From: Candidatus Binatia bacterium
GTDB taxonomy: Bacteria > Desulfobacterota > Binatia > HRBIN30
DNA length: 64,000 bases
NCBI GenBank assembly: GCA_038245295.1
Contig: JBBRSP010000032.1
Location: 1 to 64,000, forward strand
Reading direction: 5' to 3'
Shown here piece by piece: positions 8,599 through 25,001 of the stretch. Each line of letters starts with the position of its first letter. The first letter of the stretch is position 1. The position numbers and the translations under genes are program-made. The notes beneath the pieces were generated by a model. The model did not search any database, had not been told where the DNA came from, and worked only from the letters and a program-made list of their open reading frames with translations.

Positions 8599-9635
8599 GA
8601 TGCACCCCCAAGCGAGCGAAATATCTGGACGCGTTGATTGTAGGTGTCGACGACGTAGATGCGGTCGCCATCGACGGCCAGGCCCGACGGGAGCCAGAAC
8701 TGACCGGGGTCGTGACCGCGGCCGCCGAATACCATGAGGTAGCGGCCGTCCCCGTCGAACAGCTGGACGGCATCGAAGAGAGCGTCGACAAGGTAGACGT
8801 GTCCGGCCGCATCCACGCCGATGCCCTTGGGCCGGGCGAGTTCACCGGAGCCATCACCCTGCTGACCGAAGACCCCGAGGCAGCGGCCATCGGGGTCGAA
8901 GCGCTGGACGCGAAAGTTGAGCCCGTCGGTGACATAGAGAGTGCCGCCGGCATCGACGGCCATCCAGGTCGGAAAATTGAATTCCCCCGGAGCCGCGCCG
9001 CGTTCGCCAAAACGCAACTGCAGCGCGCCCTGCGGATCGAAGACCAGGACCTGATGCTTGCCGCTGTCACTCACGTACAACCGCGAACGCGTGGCGTCGG
9101 CGGCGAGACCCGCCGGGCGCGCCCCTTTCTCCAGATCCCAGCCGCCGACGCACTCACCGTCCGCGTCGAAACTGTCGATGCGGCCGCGCGCCGCGTCGGC
9201 AACGAAGAGGCGCTGCCCGAGAAACGCCACGGCGACCGGCTCAGCGAATTTGCTCGCATCGCAGCTGGTAAGCGAGTGGGCTTTTTGCGCCGTCAGATCA
9301 TAGAGCTGCACACGCGCCGCACCCGGATCCGCCACCGCGATGCGTCGCGCGTCTACGGCGACTCCGGTTGGACGCACGATCTCAGGATCGTCGGCACCAC
9401 CAACAAGGGTGGCGAGCCGCGACCACAGGGACGGTTTGATGCCGAGATCGGCCGCGCCACCGAACGCGGAGACCCACTCGACGCGCGCCTGGTCGGGCGG
9501 AGAAGGCCACACGAGCCGCACCGCCTCGACGCCCGGGCGGCCGGCGTCCCCCCAGTGACAGGATGCCACTAGGCTGGCGAGCAAGGGCACGAGGATCAGG
9601 AGGCGCTGCCGCCAGAGTCGACGTTCGGTACCCAT
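8595..9635 (-). CDS. NHL-repeat six-bladed beta-propeller lipoprotein
   Basis: Lipobox LVASC; WPSPPDQARV; repeated PxGxAVD / FNFPT / RPKGIGVD blades. Confidence 0.88.
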   Translation of the reverse strand: MGTERRLWRQRLLILVPLLASLVASCHWGDAGRPGVEAVRLVWPSPPDQARVEWVSAFGGAADLGIKPSLWSRLATLVGGADDPEIVRPTGVAVDARRIAVADPGAARVQLYDLTAQKAHSLTSCDASKFAEPVAVAFLGQRLFVADAARGRIDSFDADGECVGGWDLEKGARPAGLAADATRSRLYVSDSGKHQVLVFDPQGALQLRFGERGAAPGEFNFPTWMAVDAGGTLYVTDGLNFRVQRFDPDGRCLGVFGQQGDGSGELARPKGIGVDAAGHVYLVDALFDAVQLFDGDGRYLMVFGGRGHDPGQFWLPSGLAVDGDRIYVVDTYNQRVQIFRSLGGAS

Positions 9636-9643
9636 ACGAGTTC

Positions 9644-11692: not shown

Positions 11693-12939
11693 GGAGCATC
11701 CTTGATCCCGCTGTGACAGCGCTCGCACTGGCCGATCAGCTCGGTTGCCACGTCACCATGACAGGTCGCGCAATACTTGCCGCCGGCGAGATCAGGCATG
11801 CCGAGTCTGCTGGCGCTGGTAGCCGCATCATAGAGGTTGGTGTGACAGTTGGCGCACTCGAGATAGCGGTGTGTCTTGTGAGAAAAGCTGGTGGCGCCTC
11901 CGGATGCGGCGATCGGGCCGACCGGCACGTCAAGGTCGAGTGTGCTCTCGTGGTGCCGCGCTTGCTCGAAGCTGGGGTGGCACGGCCGGCAGGTGGTGGT
12001 GATGCCAAAGGCGACCGATCCGTGGCACGAGCCGCAGTAGCGTCGCGAGTGCAGGTCGATCGCTTTAACTCCTTCCAGCTTGCTGGCGGTGGGGAACAAT
12101 CGTGGATGGCAGTTTTGACAGGACAGCCATTTGGTGTGGCTGGCGTGTGCAAAGATGGCTTTGAACGTAGGCTGCCCCGAGGACTCCATCACGACGTCGA
12201 GATCGAGCTGTGGCTGTGGCTCGGCGTTTGCCATGCGTCCCGGCCGCGGCGAAATCAGATTGTCGTTCAGGGCGCGGTTCCAATCGACGCGCCCGGTCGG
12301 ATCGCGCGGAATGTTTTGCAGGTGGCACAGGGTGCAACCGCTCTTGGTGTCGAACGCCACCGGTCCGTGGCAAGTCGCGCAGTAGCGGTTGGTGTGCACG
12401 TCCGGCGCCGGCAGCACGTCGCCGCTTTTCATCTCAAAGATGCTGTCATGGCAGTTCGCGCAGCTCAGCCATTGCCCGTGCTTCGCATGCGAGAAGGTCA
12501 CCTTGAACGCCGGATTGGCGGGGGGAACGAGATCGATATCGAGCTCGATGACGTCCTGCTGCTTGGCGTCCGGCTCGCGCCCAGGCCGTGGGGCAATCAC
12601 CTTCTCTTCTGCGGCCCGCGTCCAATCGGGATTTCCGACCGCGTCCTTGGGAAGCTTACGCACCACGTCGTCGAAGGTGGCGAACGCGTTGGGCCCACGT
12701 GCCTCGGCACCAAGCTGCACGTCATCCTGCGGTGGTACCGTCGGGGTTGGCGTGGCGGACGGCGGATGGCGCGGGCTGCGCGCCACCTGAGGCGGGGGCG
12801 TCTCGTCTGACGGAATATCCGCGAACAAGAACGCGAGAACGCGCTGACGGTCCTCCGCGCCGCATCCGACAACCCCTGCCACGAAGGCCAGAGCGAGCAG
12901 CAGCAGAACGACCGGCCTTGCCTGGGCCACCGACGTCAC
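11689..12939 (-). CDS. Nonaheme lipoprotein cytochrome (three c7-type triheme domains)
   Basis: Lipobox VVGC; 9 CxxCH in three FxHxxH...CxNCH...YCxxCHG...CxxCH repeats; GTG start overlapping the upstream stop. Confidence 0.9.
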   Translation of the reverse strand: MTSVAQARPVVLLLLALAFVAGVVGCGAEDRQRVLAFLFADIPSDETPPPQVARSPRHPPSATPTPTVPPQDDVQLGAEARGPNAFATFDDVVRKLPKDAVGNPDWTRAAEEKVIAPRPGREPDAKQQDVIELDIDLVPPANPAFKVTFSHAKHGQWLSCANCHDSIFEMKSGDVLPAPDVHTNRYCATCHGPVAFDTKSGCTLCHLQNIPRDPTGRVDWNRALNDNLISPRPGRMANAEPQPQLDLDVVMESSGQPTFKAIFAHASHTKWLSCQNCHPRLFPTASKLEGVKAIDLHSRRYCGSCHGSVAFGITTTCRPCHPSFEQARHHESTLDLDVPVGPIAASGGATSFSHKTHRYLECANCHTNLYDAATSASRLGMPDLAGGKYCATCHGDVATELIGQCERCHSGIKDAP

Positions 12940-13265
12940 GGCCCGATGTGGCAACGCTGGCACATGTCGGTGCCAAACGCGGCCTTGCCATTGTGGCAGG
13001 CTCCGCACGATTGCCCCTTCGCCATCGCCGCCATGGTCGGCGCTTCGCCTCGCTTCATGGCGAAGAGATCGTCGTGGCAGGCGTAACATTTGTATTGGAT
13101 GCGATGCACCCAGTGCGGGAAGTAGGCGATGGCGATCTCACCGGCGGGGCGTTGGCGCGGATAGACGATGTCACCCAGCGTCCCGGCGCGCGCCGGCAAA
13201 GCGCCAGTGACCAGAAGCCCCAGCATCAGGCCGAGGAACATGCGTGCGAGATGGTGGCGGGCCAC
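12936..13265 (-). CDS. Periplasmic triheme c7-type cytochrome
   Basis: Signal peptide; FPHWVH, CYACH, CGACHNG, CQRCH. Confidence 0.92.
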   Translation of the reverse strand: MARHHLARMFLGLMLGLLVTGALPARAGTLGDIVYPRQRPAGEIAIAYFPHWVHRIQYKCYACHDDLFAMKRGEAPTMAAMAKGQSCGACHNGKAAFGTDMCQRCHIGP

Positions 13266-13290
13266 GTCCTAAACCTCCGGGGAGAACCTG

Positions 13291-13338
13291 CGTTCGGCGA
13301 AGAAGCCCATGGGTGCTGCGGGGCCTCTTCGCCGAACG
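13291..13338 (-). terminator. 18-bp GC-rich stem-loop directly 3' of the OmcE-like gene (mRNA stabiliser or partial terminator)
   Basis: CGTTCGGCGAAGAAGCCC / GGGCCTCTTCGCCGAACG inverted repeat; no clear U-tract. Confidence 0.65.
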
Positions 13339-13346
13339 AGTCACGA

Positions 13347-13997
13347 CTAGATGTCGTGGCAGGTGCTGCAGATCGCGCTGCCGCCGTTGTCGATCTTCAA
13401 GAACGGCGGATACGCGTTGTCATGTGGATTGTGGCACGAGCCACACTGGACGAAGCCTGCCGAGTCGTAGTTGACTGCGTTGCCGGCCGGCACCGTCTTG
13501 AAACCGGTGAAGCCGGTAACGTTCGCCGGCTTGGTGACGCCCAACGGATGGTTCGTCCCCATGGCAGCCGGGTTCAGGAAGGCGGCGGACCCGGACGTCA
13601 ACTTCCCTGCCGTGACGTTGGGGCCACTGACGGTACCACCTGTGTCGCGGATCAAGTCACCCAGGGCAATCGTGCCGTCATGACAGCTCATGCAGGCGCG
13701 CGATCCCGCCAGGGCGGTGCTGGTCATGGAGGTCGGCAGAGTCGTCCCCCGGACCGTCGTGGTGGGTGCCCAGGTGAGGTTCTGGATCGTCATATTGTGA
13801 TTCCACAGTGGCCGGGCCGCTGCCGGCTGGCTGTTGTGAGTCACGTGGCAGAACACGCATGTTTGCGTCTGCGTATTCGACTTGATTGCCCCGCCGCCCG
13901 TCGAGCTCAAGTCGTGCTTCGTGCCGGCAATCGGCAAGGCAAGTGCAAGCCCCGGCGTCAGCAGGGCAAGAGCGAGAAAGACGAAGCGCTTTCTCAT
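13347..13997 (-). CDS. omcE: OmcE-like tetraheme cytochrome c (candidate nanowire subunit)
   Basis: 216 aa with signal peptide; IAGTKHDLSS, CVFCHVTHN, PLWNH, CMSCHDG, NHP, CGSCHNPHDN, PFL, terminal CSTCH follow the Geobacter OmcE motif order as recalled; strong GAGGAGG RBS. Confidence 0.8.
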   Translation of the reverse strand: MRKRFVFLALALLTPGLALALPIAGTKHDLSSTGGGAIKSNTQTQTCVFCHVTHNSQPAAARPLWNHNMTIQNLTWAPTTTVRGTTLPTSMTSTALAGSRACMSCHDGTIALGDLIRDTGGTVSGPNVTAGKLTSGSAAFLNPAAMGTNHPLGVTKPANVTGFTGFKTVPAGNAVNYDSAGFVQCGSCHNPHDNAYPPFLKIDNGGSAICSTCHDI

Positions 13998-14087
13998 GAT
14001 GTACCCTCCTCGTATGTGTTGTGATTGTTTCTGAGACATCTAAGGGCCTCGTTTCCTTTCAGCTGTGTTTCCGTTTCACCCCCGCCC

Positions 14088-15176
14088 TCAACGTCCTCCT
14101 TTCTCGCCTCGCGGAATGGCCGCACCGGACGACAACTGGACGCTGTCTTCGACGGCGGTGCCGATCAGCTCGTAAACGCCGACCCGTTTTCCGAACGTGT
14201 CGGAAACGTAGATGCGGTTGCGGTTGTCGATGGCGATGGCGGTAGGATTCGTCAGCAGCCCCGGATAGGAGCCGACGCCGCCGAAGATCATCAGCAGCTG
14301 ACCGTGCTGATTGAACATCTGCACGTTGCTCCAACGCGAGTCGACGACGTAGATGTTGCCGAACGTGTCGATGGCGACGCCCTTCGGTCGCGCGAAGTTG
14401 CCGAGCTGGTCGCCCGACTCACCAAACTTCCAGAGAAACTTGCCGCTCGAGTCGAAAACTTGAATGCGATTGTTGACCGAGTCGACCACGTAGAGCCGGC
14501 CGTCAGCGTCGAGGTTGGCGAATGTCGGGAAGTTGAATTCGCCGTCGGCGCCGCCGCGCTTGCCGATTTCCTGCACCAACTGGCCGCCGAGATCGAAGAC
14601 GCGGATGCAATGCCCTTGCGGCGTATCATTGCGGCCAGTGTCGACGACGTAAAGGCGCTGCCGCGTGTTGTCGACGGCGATGCCGGTCGGATGAATCAAG
14701 AGGTCCTTGCCGATGTTGCGCAGGAAGCCGCCGCCTCTGTCATAGACACGAACGCTCTGCGTCCCGGTGTCGGTGACGTACACGTTCTCCGCATCGTCGA
14801 GGGCGACGCCCACCGGCATCGCCAGGGCATACCGCTCGTCGTCGCCGATGCTGCGTAACGTGCCAGTCTTGGAATCGAAGACGAACACGGCGTTCCACAC
14901 GTGGTCGGCGACGTAGACGCGCTCGCCGTCCGCCGACACGGCCAGACCCATCGGCTGGTAGAGGGCGCGCGTCTTGTCGCTGCCGGCCAGCAGTTCGCGC
15001 ACAGACGGACCGCCGACATCATCGCGCGACTGGAGCGTGCCGATGAGCTTGATGCGCGGCGCGTCGGGCGGATCCGGCCAGAATACTTCTGGAAGTTGGG
15101 ATTGCTGCGTCGCGCAACCGGTGCAGTTTAAGGCGACGCTCATGACCAGCATGACGGAGACGGTGAGTGTTTTCAC
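14088..15176 (-). CDS. NHL-repeat beta-propeller lipoprotein
   Basis: CTGC lipobox; FWPDPPDAPRI; six NHL blades; paralog of 8595-9635. Confidence 0.88.
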   Translation of the reverse strand: MKTLTVSVMLVMSVALNCTGCATQQSQLPEVFWPDPPDAPRIKLIGTLQSRDDVGGPSVRELLAGSDKTRALYQPMGLAVSADGERVYVADHVWNAVFVFDSKTGTLRSIGDDERYALAMPVGVALDDAENVYVTDTGTQSVRVYDRGGGFLRNIGKDLLIHPTGIAVDNTRQRLYVVDTGRNDTPQGHCIRVFDLGGQLVQEIGKRGGADGEFNFPTFANLDADGRLYVVDSVNNRIQVFDSSGKFLWKFGESGDQLGNFARPKGVAIDTFGNIYVVDSRWSNVQMFNQHGQLLMIFGGVGSYPGLLTNPTAIAIDNRNRIYVSDTFGKRVGVYELIGTAVEDSVQLSSGAAIPRGEKGGR

Positions 15177-15189
15177 AGCGTCTCGCAAA

Positions 15190-15303
15190 TGCAATTCCCG
15201 TGCTCTGCAGCCATGCATCGTGACACGATATAGAACGATCCCATTTTAGTGTTCTCTCTGCAAATGCTTGCATGGTCTGATGGCTGTTCCGCAGAGCTTT
15301 GCA
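15190..15303 (-). promoter_or_regulatory. Internal promoter: sigma54-like element with paired palindromic activator sites
   Basis: Minus strand GAGCACGGGAATTGCA (15205-15190; one mismatch in the -24 GG); TGCAAATGCTTGCA at 15259 and CGCAGAGCTTTGCA at 15290. Confidence 0.55.
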
Positions 15304-15345: not shown

Positions 15346-18006
15346 TCAGCGCGCATAGTTGATTCTGTAGGATTCCGTTCCGTGGCAGGTTGGCGTGCAG
15401 GTACCGCCGGTCGTCGTTTCCGTATAGCTGATGATACCTGGCGTTCTTCCGGTGGCGATGAGGTGCGGCTGGGTCGCCACGCCGTGCGAGTCGTGGCAGG
15501 CGTAACAAGGGTATTGATGATCGCCGAGATGTTTCGTGTGGCCTTCGTCCGTCGCCGGTAGATTGAAGCGACTGTAACTCTTCTCGGTGATGGTCGCTCC
15601 CTCGTTGGCGTAGGTGTTGTAACGATGACAGGCGAAGCATTCTTCGGTGGACGCCATGACGCGCCGTGCGCTGGACGCAATTGCCGGCTGCTTGAGCAGG
15701 TAGCGATTCTGCGACCCGTGCGGGCCGCGCACCGTCGGGTCATCGCTGCTGTGGCAGTCGCCGCAGTACATCTGCGCCGAGCCGGTCCAGCCATTGATGA
15801 AGGAGAGGACGTTGACGTTGGTGTTCTTCCCGACAGCCTCAACCGGATGGTACGAGCGGTTGTTGCTGTTGAAGACGACGGCGAGATTCGACTGACCGGC
15901 CGGCTGCGTCGTCCAGGAGGAGTGGCACTTGAAGCACATCTGGTACTCGGCGACGGGCGCTGTCGAATCGCTCTTGTTGCGAAACGTGTATGCCGGGGTC
16001 GTTCCTGCCGCACCGTTGGTGACGGCGACACGTGATACGCCGCGAAGGTGATTGGAGAGGGCCGGCGCCGCAGGGGCTGCCGAGTCGGCGCGCGCCGCAT
16101 GGGAGTTGTGACAATCCTCACACTCGGCGTGACGGTTGGCGTTTCCAAATGCCGCCGAAGTGCCAGCCTCGGTGTTGCTGTGGCGGCCGCTGTAGTCGTC
16201 GGTCGGATGTCGGTAGGTCTTGGTATCCTGCAGCAGGATGTTCTTTGCCGCCGGGCCTCCGTCGTGGCAGGCGTAGCAAAGCTTCTCTTCGCGGTTGGCC
16301 AATAGGTTCGGATAGTCCTGCGTCGGCGTGCTGCCATCGGGCCAACCGTGGGTCATGTGACAATTCGTGCAAGACCCACGCTTCGTTGTGTCGATGACAC
16401 GCGGCAAACGCGTGCCGAACGACGGCCCCGGCCACAACGCGCCGGTCGTTGGATTCAAGTGCGCCGCCGGGGAGACCGTGTCGGCGAGGCTGTGGCAGTC
16501 AGTGCAGAGGGCGTTGAGATTCGACAGGCGCGCCAATGTCCCATCCGTGGCTCCGCCGTTGTTATGGAGCTGATGACACGACATGCACTGCACTTTGTGG
16601 GTCGTCTTGTCCAAGGGAATGGTCGACGGCGTCTTGTAGGCACCGGCCGGCAACACGACACCCACCGGGTGCGAGCCGAGAGCCGAGCCGTTGACATTGC
16701 GGGCACTGTGACAGTCGAGGCACGTTTGGTTGGTGTCGTCGTCCAGACGCTGACAATGGCGGCCGTTGCCGCCGGGGCCGGGCGTGCCACTCGGGCCGGG
16801 GGTCGGATAGGCCGGAGCTGTCGGATCGAACGGTTGGGCCATCTGGCTGTGCTCGTTGTGGCACGACGAACACGTAACCTTGCCGCTCGCCAGGCGCGCC
16901 GCCAGGGCCAGCGACGTTGGCTGATTGATGTCGCTGTTGGCATAGACGGTCCACTGATCGTTCAGCTTGAACGCCGGTGGTGGCGTGGCGTTCGCGAACG
17001 TTATGTTGATGCCCTCGTCGAGGCCGACATTGCTGCCGGTCGTGATGCCCGTGGTTGCCGGTGCGGCGACGAGGTACTCGATCTGGACATCATCGACGTA
17101 GACAAAGTCGGTCGCTCCCGCGGTGCCGCTCCCGAGAAAGCGAATGTACGTGGTGGTTGCGATGAAAGCGCTGAGGTCGAAGGCTTGCGCTACCACGGCA
17201 TTGTCGCAGGCATTGAGATTGTATGTAGCGAGCGTTGTCCATGTTGCACCGTCGGTGCTGGCCTGCAGCGCCACATTCGCGGTGCTGGTGTTCGGACACG
17301 TCGCCAGTTGACGTCGGTAGCTGAAGCTCAGTAGCGCGGAAGTGGCGCCGGTTGATGTGGACGGTCGTTGGATGGCCCTGGTGTTGATCGTGCCGCCGCC
17401 AATGCGCAAGCAATTGCCGGCGACACAGGCGGCGTTGGCGACGACACGCAGGACGCCGGCGTTGACGCCGTCCGCCTCGACCACCTCCTGCCACGGTGTG
17501 GCTGTCCACGTTCGAGTGCCGTTGCTCCCGTTGAAAGCGATGGTCGTAAACTCGTCGCGATAGGTCTGCGCCGCCGGCAACGAGGTCGTCCATCCAAACT
17601 TGGCAACGCCCACATCACCGGGCGTCGTGATCGTCAACGTGTAACTCTTCGAGTAACGCCCGCTGAAAGTACCTGCCGAGGTTACCTTGCCGGGCGACGT
17701 GTTGGCCGGGCTCGCCTTGACCCAACCCGAAGCGCCCGAGTCCCAGCGATGTGATGTGCCTCCCACTCCCGGCACCGCCTCGTCGGAATCGGCAAACGGC
17801 ATGGTCGCGGCCAAACCGCCGCTACTGTGGCAGCTCATGCACAAGTTCGGATTGCCGGCGATCTTGGTGATCGCTCCGCCAGGGGCGTGGTGTGTGATGT
17901 GGCAACTGGCGCAGGTGATCGAGTTGCTGGAGTCATGCGGCGGGTCGAGGGCCAGCGCCGGCGTCGTGAACGCGAGGAGGACGAGCAGCAGCAATCGTGC
18001 GCTCAT
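15346..18006 (-). CDS. Large multiheme cytochrome c (13 CxxCH + 1 Cx3CH) with an inserted non-heme beta-sandwich region
   Basis: Signal peptide; hemes 1-2, then ~300 aa without heme motifs, then 12 more motifs ending CTPTCH. Confidence 0.92.
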   Translation of the reverse strand: MSARLLLLVLLAFTTPALALDPPHDSSNSITCASCHITHHAPGGAITKIAGNPNLCMSCHSSGGLAATMPFADSDEAVPGVGGTSHRWDSGASGWVKASPANTSPGKVTSAGTFSGRYSKSYTLTITTPGDVGVAKFGWTTSLPAAQTYRDEFTTIAFNGSNGTRTWTATPWQEVVEADGVNAGVLRVVANAACVAGNCLRIGGGTINTRAIQRPSTSTGATSALLSFSYRRQLATCPNTSTANVALQASTDGATWTTLATYNLNACDNAVVAQAFDLSAFIATTTYIRFLGSGTAGATDFVYVDDVQIEYLVAAPATTGITTGSNVGLDEGINITFANATPPPAFKLNDQWTVYANSDINQPTSLALAARLASGKVTCSSCHNEHSQMAQPFDPTAPAYPTPGPSGTPGPGGNGRHCQRLDDDTNQTCLDCHSARNVNGSALGSHPVGVVLPAGAYKTPSTIPLDKTTHKVQCMSCHQLHNNGGATDGTLARLSNLNALCTDCHSLADTVSPAAHLNPTTGALWPGPSFGTRLPRVIDTTKRGSCTNCHMTHGWPDGSTPTQDYPNLLANREEKLCYACHDGGPAAKNILLQDTKTYRHPTDDYSGRHSNTEAGTSAAFGNANRHAECEDCHNSHAARADSAAPAAPALSNHLRGVSRVAVTNGAAGTTPAYTFRNKSDSTAPVAEYQMCFKCHSSWTTQPAGQSNLAVVFNSNNRSYHPVEAVGKNTNVNVLSFINGWTGSAQMYCGDCHSSDDPTVRGPHGSQNRYLLKQPAIASSARRVMASTEECFACHRYNTYANEGATITEKSYSRFNLPATDEGHTKHLGDHQYPCYACHDSHGVATQPHLIATGRTPGIISYTETTTGGTCTPTCHGTESYRINYAR

Positions 18007-20981
18007 GGCGCCACCCACCCGACGAAGCCATGCAAATCCACGGTGGAGCTCGGGGCCAGGTCAATCGCCTCCCCGAGCAAGGCGCCGTGAATTGCCGCGG
18101 CGCGCCCGACATGAATACGTCGGCTTGCCACGATCGAGCCGGTGACGGCGGACTCCCGCTTCAGTGCAGCCGACTGGTCCACGACGAACAGCACACGCTC
18201 GGGCGATAGGCCCTCGGTGTCGATGCGTGCTGCCGAACCGAGGATGAGACGGCCGTGTACGCGCACGATCACTGTATCGGTGCCGCCATCACCGGCCAAA
18301 GTCAGTCGACTTCCGGGGCCGAGGATGAGGTTGTTCAGGTCGACGACGACTTGTCCGCCACCAAGACTACCGGCAGCCGGGAGGCGGCGGCTAGCGGCGC
18401 GCCCCAGCGTTAGCGTGCCAAGAATGAGATCCGGTCGCGGTGCGAGGCCGGCGAGCTGCGCCAGCCGACGTGTCGCCAATGTCCGCGCCGCGACACACTC
18501 GGAGAGCGCCACGCTGTTGCCGGTTGTATCAACGCGTCCACTGACGCTGGTGGCCTCGATCCCGCTGACACTACCGCCGCCGGTGCTGGCATCGCCGCTG
18601 GTCGAACTGCCATGGCGAAAGGCGACGGCACGGCCGCTGTCGGCCCACGCTGTCAGGTTGCCGTCGACGCGCGCGAAGAGACCGAGCTTCAACTCCTCGA
18701 CACAGATCTCGCCGAGGACGATCGTATCGCTGCCGAGTTTGGTCGTGCGACGCACGTGTGTAGGCAGGGGCCAGCGCAGCAGGGCGTAGTTCGCGGTGAC
18801 GAAGCGGCCGCGACAGGAACCGGCTCCGTTACAGGTATCACCCACGGTCGCGGCATCCAGGTCATCGCAAGGCTTTGTGGAGAATGGGTGTCCACAAGTG
18901 CCCGCCGAGTCGCAAATGTCGTCCGTGCAGTCGTTGCCATCGTTGCAGTCCCGTAAGGCGCCCCGGCACACACCGCCGGCGCAGTTGTCACCGAGCGTGC
19001 AAGCATTGCCGTCGTCGCACGCAGCCGAGTTGTTGCCGCGGGCGCAGCCGCTAGCCGGATTGCAGCTGTCATCGGTGCAGTCGTTGGCGTCATTGCAATC
19101 ACGCGCCGCGCCGCGGCAGGTGCCGTCGCCGCAGGTGTCACCCACGGTGCAGGCATTGCCGTCGTCGCACGCAGCCGAGTTGTTGCCGTGGGCGCAGCCG
19201 CTCGTCGGATTGCAGCCGTCATCGGTGCAGTCGTTGCTGTCATTGCAGTCGCGCGGCGCGCCGCCACAAATGCCGCTGCCGCAGGTGTCACCCAGGGTGC
19301 AAGCGCTGCCGTCGTCGCAGGGCGAGATGTTGTCGGCGTGGAGGCAGCCACTGGCGGGGGCGCAGCTGTCGTCGGTGCAGGTATTGTTGTCGTTGCAGTC
19401 GAGCGCCGCGCCGGTGCAGACTCCGCCGCCGCAGGTATCACCCGAGGTGCAAGCGTTGGCATCGTCACAGGCTGCCGTGTTTGGGCTGAAGACACAGCCG
19501 TTCGGCGCATCACACGAATCGTCGGTGCAGACATTGCCGTCGTCGCAATGGAGCGCCCGTCCGACACAGACTCCGGCGCTGCAAGTATCTTCGATAGTGC
19601 AGGCGTCGCCATCTTCGCAGCCACCGCCGTCCGCCTTGGCCCGAACCGTGCAGCCGCTGGGGACAAGGCATACCGCCTCGCTACACTGCGGGTCGGCGTC
19701 GCCGAGAGGGCAGAGGGTGCCCGGGCCACAGATCGTCACCTGCAGCGCCGTCGAGCCCTCGAAGTGCATGGCGCCGATGGAACCGGTGAGCTGGACGGTC
19801 GCGGCACCTTGCGCCGGCAGTGTGGTGAGCAACTGGGCTGTATCAAATTCGACGCGCAGGTCGGCCACACCGTTGTTGTCATGATCGCCGCTGGTGACGG
19901 TGGCGGAAGCGTGGATGCCATTGGCGGTGATAGTCGATGGGTCGATCTGGTCCGGTGAGTATCCCGGCACTTCGATGTAGGCCGCGACTACCGGCGGCGG
20001 CGTCGCACGTTCGATGGGATCCGGAGCGATCTGGGCCACAGCGGGTGCGACGCTTTCGGGATCGGTGAAGGTGCCGAGACTGAAGACTTCGAGGCGAGCG
20101 TTATTGGCGGCGGCGATGAAGAGGCGATTAGAGGAATCAATCGCCAGACTCACGGGGATCCTCAACTGGCCCGGGGCATCGCCGAAGTCGCCGAGATAAC
20201 TTACGAAGTCGCCGTTACGATCGAGGACCTCGACGCGGCCTTCGACGGAGTCCGCCACGTAGACGCGCCCCTGGGCGTCGAGAGCGATTCCTTGCGGCAT
20301 GTTGAACTTGCCGGCGCTGTTTCCCTGGGCGCCGAAGCAGGACAGGAATGTGCCGTCGGCGGCGAAGGTCTCGACGCGATAGTTGAGTTGGTCGACAACG
20401 AGGACCTGCCGTGTCGCCGCATCTACAGCGACGGCGACGGGGACGTTGAACTGGCCATCGCCGCTGCCTTGTCCTCCGAACGCGAACAGGGGAGCACCAC
20501 CGGCCGCGTAGACTTTGACGCTGTGGGCGGCGCTGTCGACGATGTACAGATTACCGGTAACGGCCTCGATCGCGATGTCGTTCGGCAGCCCGAGCTCGCC
20601 GGCGCCGCGGCCGCATTGAAAGAGCTGCTGCCAGGCGGCGTCGAACGCCGTGACACTGCCCGTGGCGGCATCGCCGACGTAGATTGTGTCATTGCCGGCG
20701 ACGGCAACACTTGTTGGGCGAGCAACGGGCTTGGTCCGCGACAAGACCCGGCCGTTTGCCGCCCGCACGACGATCTCGTTGAGCGCCGAATCGACGATGT
20801 AAAGGTTGCCCGACGGAGTCGCGGCGACACGACTCGGCACGCCAAAAGGGGCTCGATAGGCGCGCAGGTATGACGCCGGTGGTGCCGGCAATGCTGAGGT
20901 GCCGCCACCTCCACACAACCCATGCGCCGTCGAGGAGAGTAGCAGCGCGGGAAGAACGAGAAGTCGTATTGGGAGTGACAT
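18003..20981 (-). CDS. Secreted modular protein: NHL propeller, Cys-rich CDDGNACT repeats, C-terminal beta-helix-like domain
   Basis: Signal peptide; NHL blades; 50-aa Cys repeats; C-terminal RVLFVV/GSIVA/GALLG beta-solenoid-like pattern. Confidence 0.8.
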   Translation of the reverse strand: MSLPIRLLVLPALLLSSTAHGLCGGGGTSALPAPPASYLRAYRAPFGVPSRVAATPSGNLYIVDSALNEIVVRAANGRVLSRTKPVARPTSVAVAGNDTIYVGDAATGSVTAFDAAWQQLFQCGRGAGELGLPNDIAIEAVTGNLYIVDSAAHSVKVYAAGGAPLFAFGGQGSGDGQFNVPVAVAVDAATRQVLVVDQLNYRVETFAADGTFLSCFGAQGNSAGKFNMPQGIALDAQGRVYVADSVEGRVEVLDRNGDFVSYLGDFGDAPGQLRIPVSLAIDSSNRLFIAAANNARLEVFSLGTFTDPESVAPAVAQIAPDPIERATPPPVVAAYIEVPGYSPDQIDPSTITANGIHASATVTSGDHDNNGVADLRVEFDTAQLLTTLPAQGAATVQLTGSIGAMHFEGSTALQVTICGPGTLCPLGDADPQCSEAVCLVPSGCTVRAKADGGGCEDGDACTIEDTCSAGVCVGRALHCDDGNVCTDDSCDAPNGCVFSPNTAACDDANACTSGDTCGGGVCTGAALDCNDNNTCTDDSCAPASGCLHADNISPCDDGSACTLGDTCGSGICGGAPRDCNDSNDCTDDGCNPTSGCAHGNNSAACDDGNACTVGDTCGDGTCRGAARDCNDANDCTDDSCNPASGCARGNNSAACDDGNACTLGDNCAGGVCRGALRDCNDGNDCTDDICDSAGTCGHPFSTKPCDDLDAATVGDTCNGAGSCRGRFVTANYALLRWPLPTHVRRTTKLGSDTIVLGEICVEELKLGLFARVDGNLTAWADSGRAVAFRHGSSTSGDASTGGGSVSGIEATSVSGRVDTTGNSVALSECVAARTLATRRLAQLAGLAPRPDLILGTLTLGRAASRRLPAAGSLGGGQVVVDLNNLILGPGSRLTLAGDGGTDTVIVRVHGRLILGSAARIDTEGLSPERVLFVVDQSAALKRESAVTGSIVASRRIHVGRAAAIHGALLGEAIDLAPSSTVDLHGFVGWVAP
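18860..19620 (-). repeat. Intragenic 150-bp tandem repeat encoding 50-aa Cys-rich units
   Basis: GCATTGCCGTCGTCGCACGCAGCCGAGTTGTTGCCG at 19003 and 19153; degenerate copies at 19303 and 19453. Confidence 0.85.
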
Positions 20982-20995
20982 GGTGCGGCTGTCCG

Positions 20996-22378
20996 TCAGT
21001 GGGCGACCTGTTTGGAGCGGAAGGTGGCGGTGTCATGGCACGTTGCGCATTGTGTTCCCTGCTTGGCGCAGCTGGCCGTGGTGTTGCTGTGGCACGAGAC
21101 ACATTGGCGACCGACCTCGCTGTAGGAGCGCGAGCGGTGGCACTGGCTACAGATCAGGCGCGTGTGAGCGCCGGTGAGAGGGAAAGGGCTGGCGTCGTGA
21201 TCGAACAGCACCTGGCGGCTCCAGCCCCGTTCATCGTGACAGCTCTCACATCGGGTTCCTTGTTGATGATTGTGCACGTCGTCATCGCGGTGGCACGAGT
21301 AACAGGTGGTCGACTGCCGCTCGGCGCGTGGCTCGGCGCGGTGGCAATTCGTGCACGGTGTCTCCTTGTGGCGGCCACGCAGCGCGAAATGTGTGTGGCG
21401 ATCGTGGTCGAAGGTCGGTCGGCGCCAGTCGATGGGTGTGTGACACGACTCGCAGGTGTTGCCGAAATGCCCCTGATGCCTGTCGTCGCGGGCGTGGCAG
21501 CTGACGCAGGTGGCAGAGGTGTGGTCCGCCGCCGTGCCGGGTTTGTGGCAGCTGACACAGGCGGTTGCCGCGTGCCGACCGATCAAGGGGAAGGATGTCT
21601 TGCGCGCGTGGTCGAAGATGGCGCCGGTCCAACCGCGCGTCGTGTGGCACGCCAGGCAGTTGCTGCCGAAGGTTCCCTGGTGGCGGTCGTTCTTAGAATG
21701 ACAGGCAACGCATTCTGTGGGCGTCGGCTTGAAGCGCCGACTCGTATGGCAGCTCTCGCAGCGCAGCGTCTGATGTCGATCCCGCAAGGGGAAGCGAGTT
21801 GCGCTGTGGTCGAACTGTGCCGGCTTCCAGCCGCTCTCGTCGTGGCAACTCGTGCAGGCCATACCGAGTGTGCCGTCGTGCGGATCCTTTGTCTGGTTGT
21901 GGCAGTCGCTACACGCCGAGGGGGCGTCGCGAAAGCGGGTGTCGGCGGGATGGCAACCTTCACAGTCGAGCTTGGTGTGACCTCCGACGAGCGGCATGTC
22001 GGTGAGGCGATGATCAAAGGTGCGGCGTTCGAGATGGATCAGGGTCGCGTCGCGGCCCTTGTGTTCAGCGTGGCAGGATTTGCATTGCTGCGCCTTGACT
22101 GTCGGCTCGTGCCCGTGGAAGCCGCGGCTGGAATCGAGATCGCCGGCGACGTCCGTATGGCACGCCAGGCAGAGACGGTCCTGCGACGCCTTTTCGAAAG
22201 GCTCATGGCATTTGCCGCACGCCTTCTCCGTCGCCGCATGCTTCTCTGTGACTTGTCCAGGCATAACTAGTGATTCAACCCATGTGGCTCGCGCCGGCCC
22301 AGGGACCCAGATCATCAACACAGCGGCCATCACGATCACGCACGCTCTGGATCGGGTCGCCCACAGTCCCCACCGCAT
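20996..22378 (-). CDS. 18-heme periplasmic cytochrome c built from triheme repeats
   Basis: 18 CxxCH; repeated FDHxxTxFPLxGxH...CxxCH...CxxCH...H.G..G..CxxCH units; N-terminal signal. Confidence 0.92.
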   Translation of the reverse strand: MRWGLWATRSRACVIVMAAVLMIWVPGPARATWVESLVMPGQVTEKHAATEKACGKCHEPFEKASQDRLCLACHTDVAGDLDSSRGFHGHEPTVKAQQCKSCHAEHKGRDATLIHLERRTFDHRLTDMPLVGGHTKLDCEGCHPADTRFRDAPSACSDCHNQTKDPHDGTLGMACTSCHDESGWKPAQFDHSATRFPLRDRHQTLRCESCHTSRRFKPTPTECVACHSKNDRHQGTFGSNCLACHTTRGWTGAIFDHARKTSFPLIGRHAATACVSCHKPGTAADHTSATCVSCHARDDRHQGHFGNTCESCHTPIDWRRPTFDHDRHTHFALRGRHKETPCTNCHRAEPRAERQSTTCYSCHRDDDVHNHQQGTRCESCHDERGWSRQVLFDHDASPFPLTGAHTRLICSQCHRSRSYSEVGRQCVSCHSNTTASCAKQGTQCATCHDTATFRSKQVAH

Positions 22379-22381
22379 GGC

Positions 22382-23332
22382 TCAATACATGTTCACCGCG
22401 ATGACGTGCAGGACTCCTGCAAGCACCAACATAATGAACAGCGGAATGTGCAGCGCGTGCCAGAGCGAGAACAGTCGCTCGAAGGCGCCGAACTGCAGAT
22501 CTTTGACAAGGGCGTTCATGTAGTCGCGGATGACCTCGGCGGTTTCCTCCTCGTTCAGGCGAGTACCGCAGCCTTCGGGTTGAGTGCCCCGGGTGGCCGC
22601 CAGCAGATCACGATGCAGGTCGCGTACAATGCGACGCTGCACCCAGGCGGCATAAAACGGCAGGACCAGGATCCGAAATAGACGACTGACGAGACCCGTG
22701 CGTTGGGCTCCGGCACGACGTGCGAACCGTGCCAGGCGCTGTGCGGCGTCGGATGTCGGGGGTAGCCGTTCCTCCAAGGTGTGGGCGGACGAGTCGAGCA
22801 TCGCATCGAGGTCTTTGATGGTGGCGCGTGCGCCGTAGAGGCCGTGGCTGATGCGTGTGTAGATGTAGCGGCCGACGACGCCGCTGGCCGACACGATCAG
22901 CATCGAAAACAATGCGACATTACTGTTGGGCGCCCCCAGGTGGAAGCCACAGTGGAATAGGATCAGCACGGGGCCGATGACCCCGAGCAGCATGTGCGTG
23001 CGGAACCAGTGGCTCAGGGAACCCCAGGAGCGCATGAAGCGTAGCGACTTGCGGGCCGGGTACAGGGCCAGAATAAGCATGGCTGAGGCGCCGGCGATGC
23101 CAAGTCCGTAACCGAGCCCATGTTTTGGTGTGATCCCGAGATGATCCCGGGAACTCCAGCCGAGAGTCACGGTGATCGCGACGACGCCGGTAAACAGGAT
23201 GGCGGAAAGGCTCGGGTTGTGTGCCTTGCGGTGGACCCGCCGCGGTCGCGTCGCCGATTGTGAATCGTCATCACGGGCACGCCCGGTAAGATGGATCGAG
23301 AAGGGGCGAGCAACACTCATCGTCGACTCCAT
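22382..23332 (-). CDS. His-rich integral membrane protein (cytochrome b / ferric-reductase-TM-like)
   Basis: About 5 hydrophobic segments; WFRTHMLLGVIGPVLILFH and LWHALHIPLF...VLHV intramembrane His pairs. Confidence 0.7.
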   Translation of the reverse strand: MESTMSVARPFSIHLTGRARDDDSQSATRPRRVHRKAHNPSLSAILFTGVVAITVTLGWSSRDHLGITPKHGLGYGLGIAGASAMLILALYPARKSLRFMRSWGSLSHWFRTHMLLGVIGPVLILFHCGFHLGAPNSNVALFSMLIVSASGVVGRYIYTRISHGLYGARATIKDLDAMLDSSAHTLEERLPPTSDAAQRLARFARRAGAQRTGLVSRLFRILVLPFYAAWVQRRIVRDLHRDLLAATRGTQPEGCGTRLNEEETAEVIRDYMNALVKDLQFGAFERLFSLWHALHIPLFIMLVLAGVLHVIAVNMY

Positions 23333-23399
23333 TCCCCGTCGCCGGTTCCCTGCATTGGTTTGGACTTCGTCAGCATCATCAAATCCGTGAGTGCGTCAG

Positions 23400-23415
23400 T
23401 GCAAACCTCATGCCC
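23400..23415 (-). promoter_or_regulatory. Candidate sigma54 (-24/-12) promoter for the cytochrome operon
   Basis: Minus strand GGGCATGAGGTTTGCA, exact GG-N10-GC spacing. Confidence 0.65.
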
Positions 23416-23472
23416 TGATTTGAGGGGGCTGTGCGAAGCACGGGAACCTTGCCGAAGTGGCAATTCGGCAAA

Positions 23473-23518
23473 CGCAAGAGTTTGCGGAGCGGCAAGGTTG
23501 TCACTGCAAACGCTTGCA
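23473..23518. promoter_or_regulatory. Paired palindromic upstream activator sites
   Basis: CGCAAGAGTTTGCG (23473) and TGCAAACGCTTGCA (23505), 32 bp apart; same motif pair at 15259/15290. Confidence 0.6.
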
Positions 23519-23570
23519 GTGCAGTGGGTACGTTGCGCAGGCGAGGTCTACATCGTTCTTGTCGGCTGAG

Positions 23571-23586
23571 CGGCATTGCACTTGCA
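23571..23586 (+). promoter_or_regulatory. Candidate sigma54 promoter for the flavoprotein gene
   Basis: CGGCATTGCACTTGCA, exact GG-N10-GC spacing. Confidence 0.6.
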
Positions 23587-23628
23587 TCGTCGGCGGTATG
23601 TGGATGGCCATGGCAGGATGAAGTTGGG

Positions 23629-24972
23629 GTGAGCAGTCAGTTCGAAGCAGCGGTGCGTGCTTTGTGGAGCGAAGAGTTCATTCGCTTCCCAATTTACGCG
23701 ATGACGATGAGCCTGATCTGGGCTGCGTATTGGACCCGTCGCCTGAGGCAGCAGCGGCGCACGGTGCGCATGCTGGAGACGGCGGTCGCGGCTGGTCTGA
23801 GTGATCCGCCATCCCTGCACCCCGTCATCAATGAGGCGCACTGCATCGGTTGCCGGTCGTGCGTTACCGCTTGTCCGGAGGGTGATGTGCTCGGCGTGAT
23901 CGATGGTAAGGCACGTCTGGTCAATCCAAGTCACTGTATCGGTCACGGCGCCTGCAAGCGCGCTTGCCCGATGAACGCCATCGACCTTGTCTTCGGCACG
24001 GAGAGGCGTGGCGTCGACATCCCGTTTGTCAGCAGCGAGTTCGAGACCAATGTTCCCGGGGTGTTCATCGCCGGCGAGCTCGGCGGAATGGGGCTGATCC
24101 GCAATGCCGCCGAGCAGGGCCAGCAGGCAATCACCGCGATTGCCGAGCGTCGTGACAAAAGCGGTGACGCCGAGCTCGACGTGTTGATCGTCGGAGCGGG
24201 ACCGGCCGGAATCGCCGCGTCATTGGCCGCCGCCGAGAAGCGGTTGCGTTATGTGACGATCGAGCAGGAAGTGCGCGGCGGAACCGTGGCGCACTATCCG
24301 CGCGGCAAGATCGTCATGACGGAGCCGGTGAATTTGCCACTGGTCGGCAAGACCCGCCTGCGTGAGACAACCAAGGAAGCCTTGCTCGCCTTCTGGGAAG
24401 CGATCGAGAAGGAACACGGGCTGAGCATTCATTACGCCGAGCGCCTCGAATCGATCATCGCGGAGCGCGACGGGTTTCTTGTGCGTACCTCGAGTGCCGT
24501 CTACCGTGCGCGCGCCGTGTTGCTGGCGATCGGCCGCCGTGGTTCACCGCGCAAGCTTGATGTTCCAGGTGAGGAGGTTGCGAAGGTCGTCTATCGCCTG
24601 ATCGATGCGGCGCAGTATGACGGCAAACACGTACTGGTGGTCGGTGGTGGCGACAGCGCGATCGAGGCGGCTGTCAGCCTGTCCGAGCGACCGGGGACAC
24701 AGGTAACCCTGTCCTACCGCGGCGCGGCGTTCTCGCGCACCCGCGAGAAAAACCGCCAACTGCTTGCGGCGGCCGCCGCCAAACATCGGCTCAGCGTCGT
24801 CCTCGAATCGTCGGTTCGAGAAATTCTGGCCGCCGATGTGATTCTGGAACACCACGGTGCACAGCGCCTTATCCCCAACGACGCGGTGATCGTCTGTGCC
24901 GGCGGCATCCTGCCGACGCAGCTGCTCAAAGACATTGGGGTGCGCGTCGAAACCAAATATGGAACCGCATGA
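23629..24972 (+). CDS. 4Fe-4S dicluster / FAD-dependent NAD(P)H oxidoreductase (thioredoxin-reductase-like fold), N-terminal membrane anchor
   Basis: CIGCRSCVTACP and CIGHGACKRACP; GAGPAG FAD site; GGGDSA and SYR NADPH site. Start uncertain (GTG 23629 or ATG 23701). Confidence 0.85.
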   Translation: MSSQFEAAVRALWSEEFIRFPIYAMTMSLIWAAYWTRRLRQQRRTVRMLETAVAAGLSDPPSLHPVINEAHCIGCRSCVTACPEGDVLGVIDGKARLVNPSHCIGHGACKRACPMNAIDLVFGTERRGVDIPFVSSEFETNVPGVFIAGELGGMGLIRNAAEQGQQAITAIAERRDKSGDAELDVLIVGAGPAGIAASLAAAEKRLRYVTIEQEVRGGTVAHYPRGKIVMTEPVNLPLVGKTRLRETTKEALLAFWEAIEKEHGLSIHYAERLESIIAERDGFLVRTSSAVYRARAVLLAIGRRGSPRKLDVPGEEVAKVVYRLIDAAQYDGKHVLVVGGGDSAIEAAVSLSERPGTQVTLSYRGAAFSRTREKNRQLLAAAAAKHRLSVVLESSVREILAADVILEHHGAQRLIPNDAVIVCAGGILPTQLLKDIGVRVETKYGTA

Positions 24973-25001
24973 CATATGGGACGAATGGGATGGATTGCCC
25001 G

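Follow-up and report, generated by a model that had tools for sequence, protein, structure and literature searches.

To our knowledge, all established pathways by which Gram-negative bacteria transfer electrons out of the cell draw on the quinone pool by way of CymA, ImcH, CbcL or similar proteins. A quinone link has also been proposed for PCC3, a system that is so far only predicted. As described by He et al. (2017; PMC5566968), the PCC3 inner membrane protein (IMP) has about 300 amino acids and five transmembrane (TM) helices, with an SGXXG motif in helix 4 and WX3HX13H motifs in helices 3 and 5, and it was hypothesised to be a quinone-active di-haem cytochrome b by analogy with the cytochrome b of the bc1 complex and of hydrogenase. 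Here we describe a PCC3-type locus of a Candidatus Binatia bacterium, located at positions 20996 to 24972 of a 64,000-nucleotide stretch of contig JBBRSP010000032.1 (hereafter the window). It consists of a gene for an iron-sulfur (FeS) flavoprotein and, divergent from it, genes for an IMP and an 18-haem cytochrome c. We propose that the three genes encode the cytoplasm-to-periplasm half of a PCC3-type trans-envelope conduit, built as a split chain that resembles NADPH oxidase (NOX) and is fed by NAD(P)H, a reading to which we give about even chances.

No mention of the association with a flavoprotein was found in the searched literature on PCC3. In the main text of He et al. (PMC5566968), the words FAD, pyridine nucleotide, 4Fe-4S and flavoprotein are absent. 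In their passages on PCC3, the Gallionellaceae pangenome paper (PMC10734462), the transcriptome and magnetite papers on strain ES-1 and the CL21 and Leptothrix papers present a cluster of four genes, or name no PCC3 genes other than those for the cytochrome and the porin, and these passages make no mention of the flavoprotein. Searches for PCC3 together with a flavoprotein, an oxidoreductase or an ankyrin protein gave nothing relevant in openly searchable full text.

The features of the inner module are listed below. Residues of the flavoprotein are numbered in its 447-amino-acid form, which starts at GTG 23629, and those of the IMP in its 316-amino-acid form; AF2 denotes AlphaFold2 models and K+R the number of Lys plus Arg residues.

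23629..24972, plus strand: membrane-anchored FeS-flavoprotein, 447 amino acids (Pfam/NCBIfam matches; start from homologues and gene call)
23680..23736, plus strand: single N-terminal TM helix of the flavoprotein, residues 18-36, predicted N-out/C-in (charge bias, AF2)
23818..23970, plus strand: two-cluster ferredoxin domain with C72-x2-C75-x2-C78-x3-C82-P and C103-x2-H106-x2-C109-x3-C113-P
24184..24948, plus strand: predicted FAD and NAD(P)H domain of thioredoxin reductase (TrxR) fold with GAGPAG, GGGDSA and R364/R370, no CxxC (Pyr_redox_3, invariant columns)
23333..23628, no strand: intergenic region that separates the divergent flavoprotein gene and IMP operon (from gene coordinates)
22382..23332, minus strand: PCC3-type IMP, 316 amino acids, five TM helices, putative di-haem b (motifs, hydropathy, AF2)
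22943..23008, minus strand: TM3 with W109-x3-H113-x13-H127 (H113/H127 invariant in 89/89)
22469..22858, minus strand: predicted cytoplasmic helical insert of about 130 amino acids between TM4 and TM5 (mean K+R 22; AF2 helices)
22394..22468, minus strand: TM5 with W291-H292-x2-H295-x13-H309 (W291, H292, H295 and H309 invariant in 89/89)
20996..22378, minus strand: periplasmic 18-haem cytochrome c, 460 amino acids, six c7-type trihaem units, signal peptide (18 CxxCH)

The flavoprotein, the membrane protein and the cytochrome

The reading frame of the flavoprotein is open from GTG 23431 (open reading frame (ORF) 23431-24972, plus strand) and would give 513 amino acids from this codon. Homologues have 416-502 amino acids, the 60 examined for their start about 430-470, and they begin about 10 residues ahead of the hydrophobic helix. 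The existing gene call for the contig (P0122) has 447 amino acids, exactly the length obtained from GTG 23629, which has AGGA upstream. Because the homologue starts and this gene call agree, the start is most likely GTG 23629 and not 23431. Of the first-pass annotation of this DNA, the hydrophobic N-terminus is thereby retained as helix 18-36, while its start at 23431 has been replaced. The mean K+R count was 0.7 before and 4.9 after this helix (58 sequences); because of this bias, the N-terminus is predicted outside and the C-terminal part inside. The AF2 model (mean pLDDT 87.5) has a long helix at 15-54.

The protein matched the 4Fe-4S dicluster domain Fer4_10 (Pfam E value 1.4e-11) and the Pyr_redox_3/Pyr_redox_2 flavodomain (E 1.7e-39). 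Its best NCBIfam match was YpdA (TIGR04018) with 150 bits against a cut-off of 339.9, followed by TrxR (TIGR01292) with 80.5 bits against 343. The two ferredoxin motifs are CIGCRSCVTACP and CIGHGACKRACP, and the flavodomain contains a single Cys and no CxxC. The original description, a TrxR-fold flavoprotein lacking the CxxC of the reductase domain and carrying two ferredoxin motifs, one with His, was thus borne out.

Conservation was assessed in an alignment of 58 flavoproteins, comprising those of 65 loci (see below) minus five partial matches and three rows with a stop or an over-long ORF, plus the window. C72, C78, C82, C103, H106, C109 and C113 were invariant, as were the GxGPxG and GGGDxA motifs, R364 and R370. 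Position 75 of motif 1 is Cys in 49 sequences, including that of the window, whose motif 1 is thus canonical, and Ser in nine. In motif 2 a His replaces the second Cys throughout, and the clusters may be of the 4Fe or the 3Fe type, with or without His ligation. The two conserved Arg residues follow the second Rossmann strand, which suggests NADPH as the donor. All conserved Cys residues lie within the ferredoxin domain and none in the flavodomain.

By sequence and fold, the closest solved relatives of the flavoprotein are the bacillithiol-disulfide reductase YpdA/Bdr (7a7b) and the TrxR-type ferredoxin-NADP+ reductases (FNRs). It has the two-Rossmann FAD/NAD(P)H fold of 7a7b, TrxR and the TrxR-type FNRs 3ab1, 3lzw and 6gar (Foldseek E 1e-19 to 1e-16 for TrxR-fold structures, 1e-16 to 1e-17 for these three FNRs; hmmsearch E 1e-42 to 1e-17). 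The active-site Cys of the YpdA motif GGGPCG is essential in YpdA; in the window protein, unlike YpdA, this position is Ala (GAGPAG). Thiol-disulfide reductase chemistry of either the TrxR or the YpdA kind was considered for the flavoprotein and rejected, as no Cys of the flavodomain is conserved. Taken together with the scores below cut-off and the Ala at the YpdA position, this indicates that the protein is neither a TrxR nor a YpdA-type disulfide reductase. The absence of a redox CxxC is shared with TrxR-type FNRs, and the combination of a TrxR fold without CxxC and FAD and NAD(P)H motifs is a likeness at the level of the fold, not proof of membership. Unlike these TrxR-fold enzymes, the flavoprotein bears an additional TM helix fused at its N-terminus and a ferredoxin domain for two clusters that contains CxxHxxC. 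Judged from its sequence, it is in effect an FNR-like enzyme with its own fused ferredoxin, tethered to the membrane. The family has at least 8000 matches, and the names that databases give to it are "NAD(P)-binding domain-containing protein", "thioredoxin reductase" and "4Fe-4S ferredoxin" only.

The divergently encoded membrane protein, for which paired intramembrane His residues had been reported, is the PCC3-type IMP. The window protein gave no Pfam family match, and its family comprises at least 1903 homologues (E≤0.001, among 8000 scored). Five hydrophobic segments were obtained by hydropathy. The AF2 model (mean pLDDT 82.8, pTM 0.72) is all-helical, with helices at 42-60, 72-96, 106-128, 135-166 and 254-315 and a long cytoplasmic helical bundle formed by the insert (172-189, 195-208, 214-247 and the helix from 254 that continues into TM5). 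Within each of the pairs H113/H127 and H295/H309 the His residues are 14 positions apart. S150, G151 and G154 of the SGxxG motif in TM4 were likewise invariant among the 89 IMPs compared, and W109 was conserved in at least 90%. Mean K+R counts of 7.2 in the N-terminal tail, 5.1 in the TM2-3 loop and 22 in the TM4-TM5 insert place these parts in the cytoplasm, whereas values of 1.4 in the TM1-2 loop, 0.4 in the TM3-4 loop and 0 in the three-residue C-terminal tail place these in the periplasm. Haem b binding is read solely from the four invariant, suitably spaced His residues on two helices; the haem nearer the cytoplasm would be ligated by H113 and H295, and the one nearer the periplasm by H127 and H309. 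The insert is a candidate docking face for the flavoprotein.

The cytochrome gene begins 3 nt past the IMP stop, and its product has the 18 CxxCH motifs originally counted after the membrane protein. They form six groups of three, as in a c7-type repeat, and the protein matched Cytochrome_C7 (PF14522) in three stretches (E 1e-21). The IMP gene is the first and the cytochrome gene the second of an operon on the minus strand that runs from 23332 down to approximately 6919, and the flavoprotein gene on the plus strand diverges from it. No sigma-70 consensus was found in the divergent intergenic region, and a promoter and terminator scan of 23250-25100 was uninformative.

These proteins match the published description of PCC3 in several respects. 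The window IMP agrees in size (about 300 amino acids) and in its five TM helices, and carries SGxxG and both WX3HX13H motifs; the gene directly downstream encodes a periplasmic cytochrome of repeated haem units; and the operon contains further cytochromes, among them an 890-amino-acid candidate for the extracellular cytochrome, and a barrel-like candidate porin of 694 amino acids. The IMP and the 18-haem cytochrome are therefore assignable to the published PCC3 pair. Unlike the published cluster, which consists of four genes with a quinone-linked IMP, the locus in the window has a flavoprotein partner. Its periplasmic cytochrome has 18 haems, compared with a median of 21 in the set of He et al. 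(PMC5566968) and a range of 21-27 in the PCC3 passages of the Gallionellaceae pangenome paper (PMC10734462).

On paper, the combination of NAD(P)H, FAD, two bis-His haems b and an acceptor outside the cytoplasm resembles the NOX/FRE/FRO enzymes, including the predicted stacking of the haems across the membrane on two helices with a His spacing of about 13 residues. The membrane domain of NOX and ferric reductases has six helices, in contrast to the five of the IMP. In sequence the IMP is no detectable member of the NOX family PF01794 (hhalign probability 0.2-0.35%). Unlike NOX, the dehydrogenase is a separate TrxR-fold protein, two FeS clusters are inserted, and the acceptor is a wire of haems c. 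Among the 52 Pfam families matched by the 89 IMPs at E≤1, PF01794 was not one of the 25 most often matched. DUF4405, which we take to be grouped with two-haem cytochromes, recurred weakly (17/89, best E 0.017). The nearest cluster in a protein atlas bears the automatic name "Ferric reductase like" (score 0.97). The IMP is thus NOX- or cytochrome b-like on paper and is not placeable in either family.

With its putative position at the inner-membrane entry to periplasmic cytochromes, the IMP is comparable to CymA/NapC-NirT, ImcH, CbcL and NrfD-type proteins. Unlike the quinol dehydrogenases CymA/NapC-NirT and NrfD-type proteins, it lacks c-haems and matched neither NrfD nor NapC. The statement that the island lacks a quinol oxidase of the NapC or NrfD type held up, as none of the 17 ORFs scanned from 4723 to 28175 matched the NapC/NirT or NrfD families. 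One weak NapC/NirT-family match (33.9 bits) occurs on another contig of the genome.

Co-occurrence of the three genes

Linkage was examined in one genome per species. The scan yielded 586 loci with IMP relatives, of which the best 80, with flanks of up to 10 kb, were used. Related genomes are not independent, and no p-value is given for the counts. A tblastn relative of the 18-haem cytochrome was present in 80/80 loci, and in all 80 a same-strand ORF with 7-33 CxxCH lies at the IMP stop, the low counts reflecting contig ends or split ORFs. The flavoprotein was found within 10 kb of the IMP in 65/80 loci. In 46 of these it is divergent with a gap below 1.5 kb, in 12 it is on the divergent strand 1.7-7.5 kb away, in three it lies upstream on the same strand, and in four downstream at 7.6-9.1 kb. 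In nine of the 15 loci without flavoprotein, the upstream flank is shorter than 9 kb. The six others have full flanks; the genomes of five of them were searched, and four carry a flavoprotein elsewhere: two about 12 kb from the IMP and apparently on the same contig, one on another contig, and one as a 42%-identical copy far off. The fifth, a complete Nitrospinaceae chromosome, has none at E≤1e-20 (see below).

Two further samples, one from the class of the relative genome G005 and one from the phylum of the window itself, gave a similar picture. In the class sample, the flavoprotein was present in 28/251 genomes, the IMP in 30/250, and both in 26. In 20 of these 26 the two genes lie on one contig within 2.5 kb, in three they are 6.5-17.5 kb apart, and in three they are on different contigs. 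One genome has two copies of both genes, each copy paired. Both flavoprotein-only matches were at contig ends, and in two genomes the IMP-like match was no better than weak (E about 1e-17). For the phylum sample, the counts were 10/251 genomes with the flavoprotein, 14/251 with IMP-like proteins, and eight with both. Of the two genomes with the flavoprotein alone, one gave an IMP-like match with a larger profile (E 2.6e-15); in the other, the contig ends 300 bp after the flavoprotein and an ankyrin protein. In the six genomes with an IMP-like protein alone, this relative is short and matches weakly (E 1e-16 to 1e-24). The co-occurrence of the three families called for by the first-pass annotation is thus seen in the loci, and that of flavoprotein and IMP also in both genome samples; the refuting outcome named there, genes that fail to co-occur in other genomes, was not observed.

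Identity to the window protein was higher for the flavoprotein (median 56%) than for the IMP (40%). The patristic distances of the two proteins were correlated over 51 loci (Spearman 0.46; reached in 0/999 label permutations), a value that is confounded by shared ancestry. The distance between the two HX13H motifs was 171-186 residues in the 89 PCC3 IMPs. It was 170, 204 and 170 in three genomes with the flavoprotein, compared to 172, 140, 90 and 90 in four without. This is suggestive of an insert length that tracks the presence of the flavoprotein, in few cases and with one clear exception. The IMP is thus nearly always encoded next to an NAD(P)H-type FeS flavoprotein, a hint that electrons enter the wire from the cytoplasm rather than from quinones.

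Neighbouring genes and genome context

Neighbours were clustered from 1078 ORFs of the 80 loci and the window (81 sources). A protein of about 650 amino acids with a signal peptide and Sel1 and ankyrin repeats is encoded directly after the flavoprotein gene (for example L041:6408-8345, minus strand), and its cluster is present in 54/81 sources. The gaps between the two genes are nominally -137 to +36 nt with full-length ORFs, larger overlaps reflecting over-extended ORF starts. With the Sel1/ankyrin protein, the inner module of PCC3 has a fourth conserved partner. No homologue was detected at E≤1e-5 in the window genome, which is 96.6% complete, and the protein is also absent from the nearest relative, L002.

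At loci where the gap between flavoprotein and IMP exceeds 1.5 kb, genes for CcmF, a CcmG-like redoxin, CcmH and CycH/CcmI with tetratricopeptide repeats (TPR) can lie between them on the strand of the flavoprotein (L036, L042, L081); in L032, L035, L048 and L075 only a TPR gene does. Ccm-family clusters were found in 7-25/81 sources. The sets L036:3863-7872, L042:5692-9858, L081:5380-9636 and L073:5402-9873, the last on the opposite strand, belong to alpha- and gammaproteobacterial loci. This CcmF/redoxin/CcmH/CycH-TPR set may be a dedicated haem lyase for giant cytochromes. The only CcmF of the window genome is encoded on another contig.

Within the phylum of the window, short IMP-like proteins of 190-267 amino acids with two HX13H motifs are each followed by a cytochrome with 7-16 haems. 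Their partners are a 2Fe-2S ferredoxin, Ni_hydr_CYTB cytochromes b, or a NarJ-like protein with EB_dh instead of the flavoprotein (loci L092:8083-8430, minus; L093:4571-5230, minus; L094:6817-7548, plus; L091:1700-3244, plus). As these pairs have other partners, they suggest a general unit of membrane relay plus cytochrome with exchangeable inputs. In the same phylum, ORFs with 68 and 44 CxxCH follow IMP-like genes (L096:6356-11197 and L095:8095-11169, both plus strand).

Downstream of the 18-haem cytochrome, the operon of the window continues with the following features.

18003..20981, minus strand: 992-amino-acid secreted protein with NHL repeats (E 5.5e-21) and Cys-rich Dicty_CTDC repeats
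15346..18018, minus strand: 890-amino-acid cytochrome with 13 CxxCH and one CX4CH, candidate outer or extracellular protein (motif count; relative in 1/80 loci)
6919..15218, minus strand: outer block, with genes for an NHL protein, a 4-haem cytochrome, a 9-haem c7 cytochrome, a 694-amino-acid barrel-like protein, an NHL protein and an MtrC-like cytochrome in that order

The 992-amino-acid protein combines an NHL beta-propeller, many Dicty_CTDC-like repeats and an ice-binding-like C-terminal region, and is encoded between two multihaem cytochromes; a relative was found in 1/80 loci, that of the nearest relative L002. The MtrC-like cytochrome has 11 CxxCH and one longer-spaced CXnCH site. The 694-amino-acid protein, with relatives by tblastn in 0/80 loci, may be a porin, as judged from its signal peptide and C-terminal Phe (RRFF). 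The whole outer half (NHL proteins, 890-amino-acid cytochrome, 694-amino-acid protein) had tblastn relatives in just 0-2/80 other loci. The minus-strand gene run closes, after the last cytochrome, with a DUF2889 (5846-6847) and a DUF11 protein (4723-5757).

Compared by description, the components of the outer block are like those that the Gallionellaceae pangenome paper (PMC10734462) gives for Uet, the undecahaem conduit of Ca. Tenderia electrophaga: a tetrahaem cytochrome, c7 trihaem units, NHL proteins, a barrel and an 11-12-haem cytochrome. Unlike Uet, it has no peptidyl-prolyl isomerase, and its c7 units are fused into one 9-haem protein. Elsewhere in the genome, a classical fused protein of 472 amino acids with a ferric-reductase domain and an FAD/NAD domain is encoded (L083, G000:C13:33117-33467), indicating that a canonical NOX/FRE-type enzyme coexists with the PCC3-type module. 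The genome also encodes an MsrQ-like protein (L082).

Electron path and alternative explanations

In the proposed chain, the flavoprotein would be held at the inner face of the membrane by its single N-terminal helix. A hydride from NAD(P)H, and from NADPH if the conserved Arg residues are a guide, would be transferred to FAD, which would release single electrons through the two fused FeS clusters, the second of which has the invariant His where a Cys ligand would be expected. Electrons would then pass to the cytoplasm-side haem b of the IMP (H113, H295), on to the periplasm-side haem b (H127, H309), and through the 18-haem c7-repeat cytochrome to the downstream NHL, cytochrome and barrel proteins. 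The logic would be that of a split NADPH oxidase or ferric reductase, extended by an FeS wire and a haem-c wire. The analysis shows the domain content, the conserved ligand residues, the charge-bias topology and the tight two-way gene co-occurrence; haem b binding, a physical interaction of the flavoprotein with the IMP, the direction of flow and a route free of quinones are inferred. Electron flow from approximately -320 mV to typical multihaem potentials is downhill and runs along the membrane potential, and flow inwards to NAD(P)+ is opposed by both. Thus, outward flow from NAD(P)H to the surface is the likelier direction. Such a route would conserve no energy at the flavoprotein/IMP step, which would make this step a redox valve or reductase rather than a coupling site.

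The direct wiring of pyridine nucleotide to periplasmic haems suggested in the first-pass annotation fits the domain logic (NAD(P)H/FAD, two FeS clusters, two putative haems b and 18 haems c) and the predicted topology, but is strained by flavoprotein-free cores and by Ccm linkage in other lineages. Nor is the module new as a whole, since the IMP and the cytochrome are already published as PCC3. Several results weigh against the proposed chain. The haem-b fold of the IMP is putative, as fold searches gave only generic helical bundles: the IMP profile detected no relative among the PDB sequences (best E 0.25), Foldseek of the model against the PDB gave no match at E≤0.001, and the VIA wide fold search returned generic helical bundles with a best Z of 11.1, within the noise for helical proteins. 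The designed two-haem bundle 7ah0 (Z 8.9) and Dcytb 5zlg (Z 7.8) fell within this noise. Aligned by hhalign to the ferric-reductase-domain and cytochrome b proteins of its own genome, the IMP profile reached probabilities of 0.1-0.35% (0.35% and 0.2% for the two PF01794 proteins), and an alignment that puts H113/H127 on the HX13H of the NOX-like protein has no statistical support. Among longer, fused forms of the IMP there was one fusion to a cytochrome and none to a flavoprotein, which is weak evidence. Three genomes have the IMP and no flavoprotein: a complete Nitrospinaceae chromosome (L015/G001) with ankyrin protein, IMP and 27-haem cytochrome, in which no flavoprotein was detected at E≤1e-20 and which is the clearest counter-example to an obligatory flavoprotein, and two genomes of the class sample with a strong IMP match (G354, G493). 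The IMP-cytochrome core can therefore stand without the flavoprotein, and the PCC3 core can use another donor or acceptor.

These flavoprotein-free cores are what would be expected if the IMP is a quinone-reactive di-haem cytochrome b that connects the periplasmic cytochrome with the quinone pool, as in the analogy drawn by He et al. (2017; PMC5566968), and the flavoprotein an optional second input or output, or a regulator, rather than the main route. The distribution of the flavoprotein is nested inside that of the IMP, as for an add-on, and the short IMP-like relatives L093 and L094 adjoin quinone-type cytochromes b of the Ni_hydr_CYTB family. However, the IMP shows no recognisable family or motif of a quinone site, the flavoprotein accompanies the great majority of full-length IMPs and is better conserved than they are, and a membrane-anchored NAD(P)H-FeS module placed head to head in 46/80 loci is hard to call incidental. 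We regard this explanation as unlikely, though one to be taken seriously. Still less probable in our view is a role in biogenesis or maintenance, in which the flavoprotein, with or without the IMP, would supply reductant for the assembly of giant cytochromes, for example to haem iron or to CxxCH thiols, and would be grouped with maturation and chaperone genes instead of the respiratory chain. Outside the lineage of the window, the flavoprotein gene shares a transcription unit with CcmF/G/H/I genes or with that of the periplasmic ankyrin/Sel1 protein; the Ccm genes between separated flavoprotein and IMP genes lie on the flavoprotein's strand, and the Sel1/ankyrin gene follows it directly. This linkage would suit a biogenesis role just as well. 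On the other hand, neither Ccm linkage nor an ankyrin/Sel1 homologue is found in the window genome, Ccm genes near very large cytochromes are expected regardless of what the flavoprotein does, and we know of no cytochrome-c maturation system with such a flavoprotein.

Finally, the same chain might run inwards, from an external low-potential donor such as a cathode, reduced minerals or a syntrophic partner to NAD(P)+ for biosynthesis. TrxR-type FNRs are reversible, and in NarI-NarH, by analogy, a di-haem b protein can feed cytoplasmic FeS clusters. In line with this direction, Fe(II) oxidisers are the organisms in which PCC3 was originally discovered, and two of the papers (PMC5566968, PMC10734462) discuss it as a route of electron uptake. 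Nevertheless, the membrane potential would oppose inward electron movement, the step from Fe(II)-type donors to NAD(P)+ is strongly uphill with no energy-coupling subunit encoded at the locus, and both PCC3 clusters of Sideroxydans ES-1 were reported to be down-regulated on Fe(II). We consider the inward route very improbable.

If electrons enter PCC3 from an NAD(P)H flavoprotein by way of a di-haem b protein, this would represent a different entry principle for extracellular electron transfer, one that does not conserve energy. Extended to PCC3 in general, the proposed NAD(P)H-fed chain would make it a widespread two-membrane counterpart of NOX and ferric reductases, passing electrons from NAD(P)H to the surface without quinone through FAD, two FeS clusters, with His ligation of the exit cluster, a pair of haems b in a membrane-protein family without detectable known relatives, and haems c numbering from 18 to more than 60; its function would be export or that of a redox valve, and not uptake in iron oxidation as the literature assumes. 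We offer this wider version tentatively, as possible but rather doubtful. At present PCC3 genes serve as putative markers of iron oxidation in Gallionellaceae, Leptothrix, symbionts that oxidise sulfur, and many uncultured groups, and the way they are interpreted would change if PCC3 is fed by NAD(P)H. The analysis provides a lead to the function of two very large families with generic names or none, the IMP with at least 1903 and the flavoprotein with at least 8000 matches, and the idea is directly testable in cultured PCC3 carriers.

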